DNA from: Alloascoidea hylecoeti
Lineage: Eukaryota
NCBI GenBank assembly: GCA_001600815.1
Contig: BCKZ01000015.1
Coordinates: 248,001-312,000 of the forward strand
DNA: 64,000 bases
Reading direction: 5' to 3'
The notes beneath the pieces were generated by a model. It was not told the origin of the DNA and did not search any database. It was given only the letters and a program-made list of their open reading frames with translations. The position numbers were made by a program, and so were the translations under genes. This document shows positions 56,038 to 64,000 of this stretch, piece by piece; the first letter of the stretch is position 1, and each line of letters opens with the position of its first letter.

Positions 56038-57789
56038 ATGACAACCTCACCCGAAGGTTCACCTCGTTCAAATCGAACCGGAAATTTGGAAGGTAAGTTG
56101 TCGCCTTCTGCTTCAACTTCTTCATCGTCTTTGCCTATATCAACAAATGATAATCTTATTCCATTCAGTGGTGTTAATGGCGCCAATAGAGAAAGTGAAG
56201 ATATTGAGTCGCATCCAATAGCGTTAACAAGGACGCGAAGTAACGTTGAATCAATACAGGAACAAGATAGATTATCAAGGATTTTATCTGGTGTAACAAC
56301 AAGATCTAATAAAGATTACTTAAACAAACCACTTCCTGAAATGGGGGGAGGGAGAGAGTTACCACCCAAATTACCTGAACAAGATATTTACACGGTAGAT
56401 TTTACGGGTGCAGATGACCCGTATCATCCTCACAATTGGCCTCTTGGGAAAAAATTAAAAGCGTGTGTTGCTCTTGGATTTTTAACTTTATGTTCCGCTT
56501 GGGCATCTGGTGTTTATTCATCTGCAGTTCCTTTTGTTAGCGAGGAATTTAATGTTGCTTTGATCGTTGGAACTCTTGGTGTTTCCTTTTATGTTCTCGG
56601 TTTTGCTTCCGGACCAACTATTTGGGCTCCGTTATCGGAATTATATGGTAGAAAACCAGTGTTAGTAATCGCATCTTTTATTTTTACTGTTTTCCAATTT
56701 GCTGTCGCCGTTGCCAAGGATTTACAAACTATTTTGATATGTAGGTTTTTCGGTGGGTTCTTTGGTGCGGCTCCTATTGTAGTTGTTGCTGCGGCTTTTT
56801 CAGATATGTTTGGTAACCAGACAAGAGGTATTGCTATTTCTATATTCTCAGCCTGTGTATTTGTGGGTCCAAATCTTGCTCCAATTGCAGGTTCCTTTAT
56901 TTCTTACTCATATCTTGGCTGGAGATGGACGGAATATATTACAGGAATAATGGGAGCGGCCGCCGTAGTTCTGGTTGTAATGTTATACCCTGAATCATAC
57001 CATCCTATTATTTTATGTGATAAAGCTGAAGAATTAAGAAGAAGAACTGGTGTATGGGGAATAAGAGCAAAACATGAGAGTTTCAGATTGAGTATTAAAG
57101 AAATTGTTAACACCAATTTAACAAGACCTGTTCGAATGCTTTTTACAGAGCCAATCATTTTCTTGATTACAATTTATAATGCTTTCATATATGGTATTCT
57201 GTATTTATTCTTAACGGCTTATCCTTATGTCTACGCATATAAATACCATTGGACTGGTGGTTTGACAGATATGGTTTTTATTCCTCTTGCAATCGGTCAA
57301 ATTTTAGGTGGTTTGGGTTGTGTATGGAGTGAAACAAATTATAATAAAGTTATTTCGGCTAACGGTGGTAAGCCAGTTCCAGAAGCAAGATTACCCCCAA
57401 TGATGGTTGGTTGTTTTTTATTTCCAATTGGTTTAATGTGGTTTATGTGGACAGGTAATTATCCCGACAAAGTACATTGGGTAGTTCCAATGGTTTCAGG
57501 TATATTCACTGGTGCTGGATTAATTACAATTTTCTTACCATCTATGAATTATATCGTCGATGCTTATTTAATGTTTGCAGCATCTGCTTTAGCCGCAAAT
57601 ACAATGTTACGTTCCTTATGGGGTTCTGCTTTTCCCTTATTTGCTAAGTATATGTTAGATGGTATGGGAGTTAATTGGGCTGGATTATTACTTGGCTTAC
57701 TTGGATTTGCAATGTGTCCTGTTCCATTCTTATTCTATAAGTATGGTAAAAGAATCAGAGGTCGTTCAGCCTATGCTCCTGATATCTGA
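56038..57789 (+). CDS. MFS DHA1 drug/polyamine:H+ antiporter (Tpo1/Flu1-like)
   Basis: Motifs DDPYHPHNW...KK, WAPLSELYGRK, GWRW, RPVRMLFTEPI, PEARLPPM and YIVDAY..FAASALA, consistent with 12 TM helices. Confidence 0.9.
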   Translation: MTTSPEGSPRSNRTGNLEGKLSPSASTSSSSLPISTNDNLIPFSGVNGANRESEDIESHPIALTRTRSNVESIQEQDRLSRILSGVTTRSNKDYLNKPLPEMGGGRELPPKLPEQDIYTVDFTGADDPYHPHNWPLGKKLKACVALGFLTLCSAWASGVYSSAVPFVSEEFNVALIVGTLGVSFYVLGFASGPTIWAPLSELYGRKPVLVIASFIFTVFQFAVAVAKDLQTILICRFFGGFFGAAPIVVVAAAFSDMFGNQTRGIAISIFSACVFVGPNLAPIAGSFISYSYLGWRWTEYITGIMGAAAVVLVVMLYPESYHPIILCDKAEELRRRTGVWGIRAKHESFRLSIKEIVNTNLTRPVRMLFTEPIIFLITIYNAFIYGILYLFLTAYPYVYAYKYHWTGGLTDMVFIPLAIGQILGGLGCVWSETNYNKVISANGGKPVPEARLPPMMVGCFLFPIGLMWFMWTGNYPDKVHWVVPMVSGIFTGAGLITIFLPSMNYIVDAYLMFAASALAANTMLRSLWGSAFPLFAKYMLDGMGVNWAGLLLGLLGFAMCPVPFLFYKYGKRIRGRSAYAPDI

Positions 57790-60503: not shown

Positions 60504-61507
60504 GTATTTGTATTTATTAATTGAAAGTTAGGCAATCGATATGTAGACTAAATAAAAAAAGCTTTAATTCCACGATATCACGAAGAATTAATAAAATGTA
60601 TACTATGATGTGTAGTCAAAAAGCAGAAATAATAAGAAGAGTTGATCGAGAACCTAATGCAATAACAACAACAATAAAAAGAGCAATAACAATAACATAC
60701 TATAAATACATATTACATAATCGCAAAGTTGAAAAGATACGTCAAAAAGCGTCCAGGGAAGTCCGAGAGGAGCCCGAGGGACTAAATAACTCTTAAGATA
60801 CAATGAAATTGCGCCCAAATCATTGAAAATGAAATATGGTTAGTCAATTAGGTTTGATTAATGAGAGATTAGCGTTCTTGTAGCTCATTACGGATTCGGT
60901 TAAGCATCGATTTGCTCGAACTTCTTGGTGATATTTTCGAAGGCGAAACGATGCCTCTGATGTGGAGTTTTTGTTCGAGCGATTCAAGAGCCAAAACACG
61001 CAGTGGAGGAGCAAGCATTTTGTTCGAAGAGCGTTAATTGCAACTGTTGTTGTTATGCCAGATGGAGGAAGACAACAACACGTGCAGCCAAAACCAGATT
61101 CGGGCGATGCGGGATACACGTGACGTCCGTTAGTAAGCCGTTATATAATACCCTCGGAGCCGTAGCCGGGTCCCGTCATGTGTGATCCGACTTCGGGTTT
61201 TCTAGCACTGGGGAACGTGGAGTTATTAGGCCGCGGGCCCCAAAAGCTTGTCCAATGGCCTTCGAGATGATTTGACACCCAGGTGGTACAGGTCCTTCAG
61301 TAATGAAGCCCCACCGGAGATGAGGGCTTGCTTTGCGCAGTCAGGCCGAGTCTGTGTTCTGGCTTCTCAGCATAAACCCATCCGGATACCCATCACCTGC
61401 ATGTATTTTGGTTGTGTCCGACTCTAATAAATATTTTATCTCTTTCTCTTTAGCCTTTAAGTTGAAAATTTCTTTCTCCCACAAACCTTCTTCCCAGTAA
61501 TTCAATC

Positions 61508-63224
61508 ATGCTGCAAAGCTCCCTACGGAAAAACAGTCTGAAATTAGCCAGATCCTTCTCGGCTTCTCTCCCAAAATCGGCCAGAGCCGTTTCCACAATT
61601 GCTCAAAGATCAATTAGACCCAAGTAAGCACTTACCCCGAGTTATCGCATTTAATGTTTATACTAACTTGGCATTCATTGTTCCTTAAAGCCACAAGCCT
61701 ATTCTCTCCATCCCTTTGTCCCATTATGGCCCGGCTTCGACCTGTTTTATTCGTACCTATGCCGAAATTGTAAAGGTCCCAGATATGGCCGAGTCAATTA
61801 CTGAAGGCACTCTTCGATCTTTTGAAAAAGAAATCGGGGACTATGTCGAAATAGACGAAGAAATCGCAACCATTGAGACTGATAAAATTGACGTCCCGGT
61901 TCAAGCACCCTTTGCTGGTACTATTACTGAATTTTTAGCTAAACCTGAAGATACAGTTGTTGTCGGCCAACCTTTGGTTTCAATAGAGCCTGGTGAGGGT
62001 GGAGCTCCTGCAAAGGCATCTAAATCTGCAGAACCTGAAAAATCTGAGGATAAAGCTGAAGCTGCCATTCCCAAAGAAACTGCACAAGCTGCCGAGCCTG
62101 CTGGTGAACCACAGGTAGTCAAAGTTCCTGATATGGCCGAGTCTATTACAGAAGGCACTCTTAGATCTTTTGAAAAAGAAATTGGAGAGTTTGTTGAAGT
62201 AGATGAGGAAGTCGCAACTATTGAAACCGATAAGATTGACGTCCCAGTCTTGGCCCCATTCTCGGGAACAGTTAAGGAGTTCTTAGCTAAACCTGAAGAT
62301 GCTGTTACTGTTGGTCAAGATTTGTTTGTCTTGGTCCCTGGTGGAAGCCCATCTCCAAAAGCTGCTACACCCGCACCAACATCTGCTTCTCCATCATCTG
62401 ATGCAACACCGGCTCCCAAGACAGAAGCTCCAAAGAAGGAAGCCCCAAAGAAAGAAGCTTCAAAGAAGAAGGAAACCGCTGCTCCTCCTCCTGCAGAAGC
62501 TTCAAAAGCTTTCGCCAGATCTGAAACCAAGGTTAAGATGAACAGAATGAGATTAAGAATTGCTGAACGTCTTAAGGAATCCCAAAACACTTCAGCATCT
62601 TTGACTACTTTTAATGAGGTCGATATGTCAAATCTTATGGATTTACGAAAATCATATAAGGATGCCGTTTTGGAAAAGACTGGCATTAAGTTTGGTTTCA
62701 TGGGTGCTTTCTCAAAAGCTTGTACTTTAGCCATGAAAGATATTCCAACTGTAAATGCTGCCATTGAAGGTCCAAATGGTGGTGATACTATTGTTTATAA
62801 AGACTATGTGGATATTTCTGTTGCAGTTGCTACTCCAAAAGGTTTAGTTACTCCTGTTGTTCGTAATGCTGAATCCCAATCTATTATCGAAATTGAAAAA
62901 TCAATCAGTGATCTTGGTAAGAAAGCCCGTGATGGTAAGCTCACTCTAGAAGATATGGCAGGTGGAACTTTCACTATTTCAAATGGTGGTGTTTTTGGTT
63001 CATTATACGGAACACCTATCATTAATATCCCACAAACTGCTGTATTGGGATTACATGGTATAAAAGAACGTGCTGTTGTTGTTGATGGAAAAGTTGTAGC
63101 TAGACCAATGATGTATTTGGCTTTGACATATGATCATCGTTTATTAGATGGAAGAGAAGCCGTCACTTTCTTGAAGACTGTTAAAGAATTAATAGAAGAT
63201 CCAAGAAGGATGCTCCTTTATTAG
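61508..63224 (+). CDS. KGD2: 2-oxoglutarate dehydrogenase E2 (dihydrolipoamide succinyltransferase) with two lipoyl domains; intron 61624-61690
   Basis: The presequence exon from ATG 61508 splices through GTAAGC..TACTAAC..AAG. Two ETDK lipoyl domains precede the catalytic core ([28 protein letters not shown]). Confidence 0.97.
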
Positions 63225-64000
63225 ATATTGGAGTGTTAGTTTAGTGAATAATATTATATAGAGTATTAGTTACTAGGCCTAAAATTAATCTGATTTTTAC
63301 CGTTTAGTTTGACCATATATGTTGATAATACACATGTAATACATGTATTTTACATTGCTTGCGAAAAGTGATCAAAAGTTTTTGGGGGAATTGAAGTGAA
63401 AGCTAGTGGTCGACATTCTCAATCAAAAAACTAAACTTAATTATAATATATAAAAATGTTATAAAAACCCTTCTATGTATAAGAAAGTGAATAAGTATTT
63501 TGGAATCTAGGAATTAACTTCCAACACCCAATATAAGTTATAAATTTATAATATATCTATAAATGAATAATTTATATTATAAAGATCTGAAGAGCCAAAA
63601 AAAAGTTACAAAAGCATTAAAAAATATAAAAAGTTAAGAGAGAATTATAAAATAGCCTTACCAAGGAGATAAAGAACTATATCTTCATCATCATCATCAT
63701 CATTATCATAAATAATACTGTAGTGTGTGGTGTGTAAAGCAAATCAAATAAAAATTGAAATATTCTTATTTCAATTTATAGATTATTGATAAATATGGCC
63801 ATAATTTCACACATATTGTAGAAGTATTTTTTAGTTGTTTATACATGTAATCAACTGAGACAGTGAAGATAATGTTACAATTGGGAGCTTCCGAGGCAGC
63901 TCCAAATGAGAGAGAATATTTTTAGAAAGCACAGAAATCTTTTGAGAAACTCTATTTATCCCAATTTTTTACTGGTGATTATTGATCTTAATTTGGAGAT

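Follow-up and report, generated by a model that had tools for sequence, protein, structure and literature searches.

The E2 subunits of 2-oxoacid dehydrogenase complexes generally carry one to three lipoyl domains, tandem copies being a textbook feature, and the extra arms of the Escherichia coli pyruvate dehydrogenase (PDH) are dispensable. Work on E. coli PDH long ago posed the question of what favours a second or third arm in some E2s, given that a single one can be enough. The KGD2 gene of Alloascoidea hylecoeti, which lies in the 64,000-nucleotide stretch of DNA analysed here (the window), raises this question for the mitochondrial 2-oxoglutarate dehydrogenase (OGDH) complex: its product, the OGDH E2 (E2o), has two predicted lipoyl domains, and the available text of three accounts describes OGDH E2 with one arm (PMC11436768, PMC7448341, PMC10203282). 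Judged by sequence comparison, the two-arm Kgd2 is a real, selected and lineage-specific variant, yet a recurrent one and not a one-off. What is new here is the loss of an acidic residue at position 75 of the inner arm.

Identity of KGD2 and its partners

KGD2 appears in the window as a 479-codon open reading frame at 61785-63224. Splicing of an inferred intron yields a frame of 549 residues that begins further upstream, at 61508; the initial annotation contained neither this intron nor this start (Table 1). The GTAAGC donor and TACTAAC branch of this intron are the sole such matches in 61450-62500, and the acceptor next after its AAG (61697) is out of frame. Given the inferred intron, the first 62 residues include 10 lysines and arginines and no aspartate or glutamate, a composition that fits a presequence.

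Table 1. Features of the KGD2 locus, in window coordinates (lysines and residue 520 in precursor numbering)
Feature	Position	Strand	Evidence
KGD2 exon 1, first part of mitochondrial presequence (inferred)	61508..61623	+	spliced frame
KGD2 intron (inferred), 67 nt	61624..61690	+	GTAAGC donor, TACTAAC branch at 61661, AAG acceptor
KGD2 exon 2: putative presequence end, both lipoyl domains, linkers, catalytic domain, stop	61691..63224	+	
Outer lipoyl domain L1	61764..61994	+	Pfam PF00364; AlphaFold2 beta-domain, block pLDDT 77-88
Predicted lipoyl-lysine K104 of L1	61884-61886	+	IETDKID motif
Domain position 75 of L1: Glu, the single- and outer-domain state	61986..61988	+	
Linker 1, 39 aa, Ala/Glu/Pro/Lys-rich	61995..62111	+	predicted disordered, pLDDT < 50
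Inner lipoyl domain L2	62112..62342	+	Pfam; AlphaFold2 fold
Predicted lipoyl-lysine K220 of L2	62232-62234	+	IETDKID motif
Domain position 75 of L2: Val, acid lost, as in 21/21 fungal inner domains examined	62334..62336	+	
Linker 2, ~60 aa, Ala/Pro/Lys/Ser-rich	62343..62519	+	
Succinyltransferase catalytic domain	62520..63218	+	PF00198 E 8.6e-84; TIGR01347 578 bits
DHRLLDG motif, residue 520	63132-63152	+	invariant in the alignment

By every feature that can be tested on the sequence, Kgd2 is a member of the Kgd2/DLST family. Pfam finds two Biotin_lipoyl stretches and one acyltransferase catalytic domain, with no E3-binding (PSBD) domain among its four matches. The NCBIfam succinyltransferase models score well above their cut-offs (TIGR01347, 578 bits against 379; NF004309, 520 against 449), and all acetyltransferase models of that collection fall under theirs. 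The catalytic domain contains DHR..DG, which we take to be the catalytic motif of E2, and nests among fungal E2o in a catalytic-domain tree. Its best structural matches are solved E2o cores; Kgd2 is alike in this domain to the eukaryotic E2o of C. thermophilum (7q5q, 8oiu; 80% identity to the core) and of mammals (7uol, 8x02, 6h05). As in those proteins, a PSBD is missing (available portions of PMC9681731 and PMC9974300) and a match to the Kgd4 adaptor is present in the genome (PMC9974300, in part). Kgd2 differs from the canonical single-arm eukaryotic E2o in having two lipoyl domains (Pfam); the latter has one, 24 per complex, in what is available of PMC11436768 and PMC7448341. A PDH E2 identity (of the AceF, Lat1 or DLAT type) was rejected on the failed acetyltransferase models, the absent PSBD and a separate Lat1 gene on contig C12.

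A search of the genome returned two catalytic-domain matches, KGD2 and Lat1, one Kgd1-sized E1 and three ligase-family matches, each count being a lower bound for the best candidates scored. KGD2 is almost certainly the sole mitochondrial OGDH E2 gene of this organism. Neither a branched-chain 2-oxoacid dehydrogenase E2 nor a second E1o-like gene was matched among the best candidates scored. The initial annotation had regarded multiple arms as typical of PDH E2; in this organism the situation is reversed, with one lipoyl domain each in Lat1 and Pdx1 (again lower bounds for the best candidates scored). Its suggestion of changed Kgd4 docking finds no support, a PF10937 (Kgd4/MRPS36) match above cut-off being present on contig C34, where the match covers the C-terminal part only. 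Loss of Kgd4 as the reason for a second arm was likewise rejected for this genome on this match.

Maintenance of both lipoyl domains

The window holds one long direct repeat, with a spacing of 348 nucleotides and both copies within one open frame. The repeat, the Pfam matches and the translation bear out the two intact tandem lipoyl domains, each with its IETDKID motif, that had been proposed for this locus, and the Ala/Pro/Glu/Lys character ascribed to the linker between them holds as well, these four residues making up 74% of linker 1. AlphaFold2 predicts L1 and L2 to be alike in fold and the linkers to be disordered. The domains share 60/77 residues and 174/231 nucleotides, with identities at the three codon positions of 63, 70 and 41 of 77; the 57 nucleotide differences are mostly synonymous. 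The corresponding distances (pS 0.65, pN 0.12, dS ~1.5, dN 0.13) give a dN/dS of ~0.09, with a bootstrap range for pN/pS of 0.11-0.30. This substitution pattern shows purifying selection maintaining both L1 and L2, as had been suspected from their synonymous differences. Recent gene conversion between the two was not seen: synonymous changes number 9, 9 and 9 over three blocks, and pS stands at 0.65.

A contrast is provided by a decayed copy elsewhere in the genome. The segment 58208..62004 of the window is duplicated on another contig (G000:C9, ~425664-429224), where it comprises an intact zinc-finger gene copy and a decayed L1 only. The latter matches window 61734-62001 at 82% identity, stops at the end of the L1 domain, and has three gap openings and two stops, whereas the tandem pair has none; its differences from L1 by codon position are 14, 7 and 12. 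Because the neighbouring zinc-finger pair (598/712 residues identical, dN 0.08) has a dS of 0.19 compared with ~1.5 for L1 and L2, the C9 duplication is far younger. The unselected copy thus decayed within about one-eighth of the synonymous distance that separates the still intact L1 and L2. We rejected this copy as a source or relic of the tandem duplication, since it sides with L1 at 50/52 diagnostic sites and is much younger.

The two domains appear to present the same surface to E1. According to the available text of PMC6270654, the main E1 determinants are the loop between strands 1 and 2 and the lysine turn, and strands 1 and 8 and both termini lie on the side opposite the lysine and E1 face. 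Positions 3-25 of L1 and L2 are identical at 23/23 residues, although nine synonymous changes separate their codons, and the lysine turn is likewise identical, which together show a common E1-facing surface at the level of residues. Where the two domains differ, at 17 positions, the columns are naturally variable ones (entropy 1.33 compared with 0.66, p=0.0006). Rare states occur in L2 at positions 47, 64, 73 and 75 and in L1 at 30, 47 and 73. The L2 branch is the longer (0.27 compared with 0.04), and a relative-rate test finds L2 faster at p < 0.05, uncorrected, with three of ten outgroups and not with the other seven; the indication that L2 evolves faster is weak.

Distribution and origin of the second arm

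Among close relatives, two-arm Kgd2 is rare. When 120 matches were ranked by catalytic domain alone, 112 had one lipoyl domain, seven (fragments) had none and one had two; this sole two-domain protein among the 113 with a domain is the Kgd2 of the window itself. At least 25 residues precede the domain in 87/112 of the one-domain matches, and the other 25 are possibly cut at the N-terminus. The concern that two lipoyl domains might simply be common in fungal Kgd2 is therefore answered for these relatives by the domain count (1/113). Searches that favour two domains, and so give no estimate of frequency, returned 11 two-arm proteins among 119 non-self matches, others in a further search and 27 among 150 cluster representatives.

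These searches place two-arm E2o in Saccharomycodes ludwigii, Hanseniaspora guilliermondii and H. valbyensis, in the chytrids Chytriomyces, Podochytrium, Physocladia and Siphonaria, and also in bacteria, in eukaryotes other than fungi and in proteins of ascomycete- or basidiomycete-like type. For some proteins, designations of this kind (basidiomycete-like, alga-like, bacterial) were read from trees and sequence, not from database names. Wherever the domains are whole, the other two-arm proteins of fungi keep both lysine motifs and the E1 loops; in four chytrid gene models the first lipoyl domain is incomplete. By these comparisons, two-arm E2o occurs in about six separate fungal lineages. The lineage-specific architecture proposed initially thus stands in one respect, the duplication being specific to this lineage by the sister grouping of L1 and L2, and falls in another, as two-arm Kgd2 recurs in other fungi, eukaryotes and bacteria.

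Some further database proteins have unusual domain numbers. The DLST of the animal Gordionus (P0350) has two lipoyl domains, a eukaryote-like E2o (P0142) has three, and two E2o proteins (P0003, P0006) have a repeated catalytic-domain stretch that is probably an assembly or annotation error.

On a catalytic-domain tree of 57 rows selected from 338 proteins, KGD2 branches off early within the budding yeasts, at a point above the Lipomyces group, and proteins with two arms lie interspersed with those that have one. The fungal tree (50 rows, 14 of them two-arm) requires at least six changes in arm number, with one-arm taxa in between; such counts do not separate gain from loss. A single ancient origin is less likely because it would require many losses, and the AU test narrowly rejects uniting the two-arm yeasts in one clade (p-AU 0.044). 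L1 and L2 come out as sisters on the lipoyl-domain trees (98/92, with the bootstrap unsettled, and 97/86 in a second tree), a grouping that gene conversion could mimic, and they have rare residues in common, such as the proline at position 45. AU tests reject the grouping of every yeast outer arm in one clade (p 1.6e-5) and the corresponding clade of inner arms (p 3.7e-5), and do not reject L2 united with the inner arm of protein P0004 (p-AU 0.12). Taken together, the trees point to a second arm that was very probably gained independently in this lineage.

The arms of Saccharomycodes are 90% identical and those of Hanseniaspora ~70%, and the AU test does not reject a clade that unites every arm of the Saccharomycodaceae (p-AU 0.50). 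The single arm of Lachancea (P0243, P0256) groups with the outer arms of Hanseniaspora (P0005, P0007, P0010) in one tree and not in a second; the residues shared by the two would fit an older duplication followed by loss in the S. cerevisiae family.

Loss of an acid at position 75 of the inner arm

Position 75, in the last strand (strand 8), is acidic in 154/161 distinct single-domain fungal-type proteins. In two-arm proteins the acid is present in the outer and absent from the inner domain in 6/6 fungal lineages and 21/21 fungal proteins, with V, A, S/T, Q or N as the inner residue depending on the lineage. Total acidity in Kgd2 is matched, with 18 and 17 aspartates and glutamates in the two domains. 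The pattern was first spotted by eye and then scanned, on an automatic alignment; in the blind scan of columns, position 75 gave p=0.0034 in 142 tests, which fails Bonferroni correction, and the only other column to stand out was position 51 (7 compared with 0, p=0.016 uncorrected).

A held-out non-fungal set of 24 proteins from outside the alignment, whose bacterial rows may be related, shows the acid in the outer domain only in 12, in the inner only in two, in both in three and in neither in seven (p=0.013); among the 77 columns, position 75 takes first place. The ten eukaryotic rows of this set are by themselves not significant (4 compared with 1, p=0.38). Of 21 related bacterial-type E2s with three arms, 18 have the acid in the first arm and none has it in the second or third; among 43 two-arm bacterial-type E2s the pattern is weaker (8 compared with 1). 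Across lineages, these residue counts show a convergent loss of the acid at position 75 in the inner arm. Most simply, the acid would probably pair with the free N-terminal amino group, which the outermost domain alone possesses, and the linker on the N-terminus of an inner domain would then leave the acid unpaired.

In a mostly open-access literature, supplements aside, we found neither a description of a eukaryotic E2o with two arms nor one of the pattern at position 75. A broader proposition, which we consider possible but doubtful, is that the number of lipoyl arms in mitochondrial OGDH has changed repeatedly in evolution, a trait apparently not reported before, and that each gain of a second arm drives the loss of one strand-8 acid from the inner arm.

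Possible reasons for keeping two arms

The explanation that we favour, with some confidence, is one of redundant arms by analogy with E. coli. The second lipoyl domain arose in this lineage by an old tandem duplication within the gene, and both L1 and L2 would probably be lipoylated by Lip3, which can transfer lipoate from Lat1 to Kgd2 according to the available text of PMC7831266. The three arms of E. coli AceF are 73% identical, all lipoylated, and act redundantly (PMC8421416, in part), and by analogy L1 and L2 would swing between E1o, the E2 core and E3, with either arm able to replace the other. A 24-mer core would then carry 48 arms instead of 24, with more reach and more acyl and redox buffering.

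Alternatively, the arms could divide their labour, the outer one serving distant E1o and E3 or lipoate uptake and the inner one the core or the tethering of peripheral subunits, with the loss at position 75 as a mark of the role. The convergent difference between outer and inner arms in 21/21 fungal proteins and the longer L2 branch speak for such a division, as do the Lip3 transfer from Lat1 to Kgd2 (PMC7831266, in part) and a structural role suggested, in the available text of a cryo-EM and cross-linking study (PMC10203282), for a lipoyl domain that is unloaded while another, loaded, goes through the cycle. We nevertheless consider it unlikely, as the E1-facing loop and lysine turn are identical, position 75 is on the side of the termini, opposite the lysine, no further column except position 51 emerged from the scan, and Kgd4 is present.

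It is also rather improbable that the extra arm brings no benefit, having been fixed by drift and kept in shape since a domain that misfolded or went without lipoate would damage the complex. The one-armed state of 112/113 domain-bearing close relatives, the lack of a testable shared ecology among two-arm lineages and the other duplications tolerated by this genome would all agree with such a history. However, a clean in-frame deletion would end the harm, yet has not spread, and the lysine motifs and E1 loops have been kept over a dS of ~1.5, and likewise in other fungal two-arm proteins with whole domains.

Very unlikely, in our view, is a single ancient duplication with many losses, in which gene conversion makes the arms of each species look like sisters. 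Common descent would yield the shared difference at position 75, the closeness of the Saccharomycodes arms relative to those of Hanseniaspora hints at conversion there, and the grouping of L2 with the P0004 inner arm survives its AU test. The inner residue at position 75 varies by lineage, however, the fungal tree has six changes with one-arm taxa in between, and the pS of 0.65 reveals no recent conversion in KGD2; the AU rejection of all-outer and all-inner yeast clades also counts against it, though conversion would give the same result.

An assembly artefact or the splicing out of one domain, for which a GTGAG word weakly resembling a donor, where L1 ends (61993-61997), might be cited, can practically be discounted, as the copies differ at 57/231 nucleotides, mostly synonymously, an independent contig spans both domains, and the 5' part of exon 2 downstream of this word has no canonical branch site. 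That contig, from metagenome run X4 of a study other than those of the possible source runs, covers 61400-63300 in one piece, and its differences from the window, an insertion and four substitutions, all lie upstream of L1; the check uses assembled contigs, not raw reads, from four of 11 runs, of which X5 and X6 yielded short pieces alone. Because it spans the whole gene, the two-domain KGD2 is not an assembly artefact.

Comparison with other multi-arm E2s

The redundant-arm reading draws on E. coli AceF (7b9k), which has three tandem domains. Arm divergence is similar (73% identity there, 78% here), and in the available text of PMC8421416 the linkers are Ala/Pro-rich and arm differences lie, as in Kgd2, away from the interaction face. 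AceF is, however, an acetyltransferase with a PSBD, and Kgd2 fails its model (328 bits against a cut-off of 722). The actinobacterial multi-lipoyl E2s (SucB_Actino, DlaT, AceF) have two or three arms, but Kgd2 scores under the model cut-off (333 against 423) and catalytic identity is ~40%. Mammalian PDH E2 resembles Kgd2 in having two tandem arms (L1, L2) in a mitochondrial E2; we know of no regulatory kinase for OGDH such as the one that works through those arms. In mammalian PDH, what is available of PMC6270654 describes arms that also serve kinase regulation, with kinase docking. The two-arm Kgd2 of Saccharomycodes, Hanseniaspora and chytrids and the Gordionus DLST have the same architecture as Kgd2 here, and the fungi have the position-75 state in common, but the trees suggest separate origins.

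A second arm involves no new chemistry and probably has a modest practical effect. As fungi gained it separately about six times, including twice in culturable yeasts closely related to S. cerevisiae, the reason for keeping it is nonetheless testable by complementation, and the convergent change at position 75 offers a specific residue to mutate. Should the loss from the inner arm be selected and lend this arm a role or mobility of its own, these natural repeats would offer both a direct yeast-genetics test of why extra lipoyl domains are kept and a residue-level rule for tandem swinging arms.

Other duplications in the genome

Duplicate genes seem to be numerous on several contigs of this genome. 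There are two genes of PDH E1-alpha-like type (C3, C14), and six biotin-domain matches lie in frames of 1111-2192 residues, more than one carboxylase set needs. Just past the window is a second MFS transporter frame (G000:C15:316093-317907; L021:5093-6907), which by eye resembles the frame at window 56038-57789.
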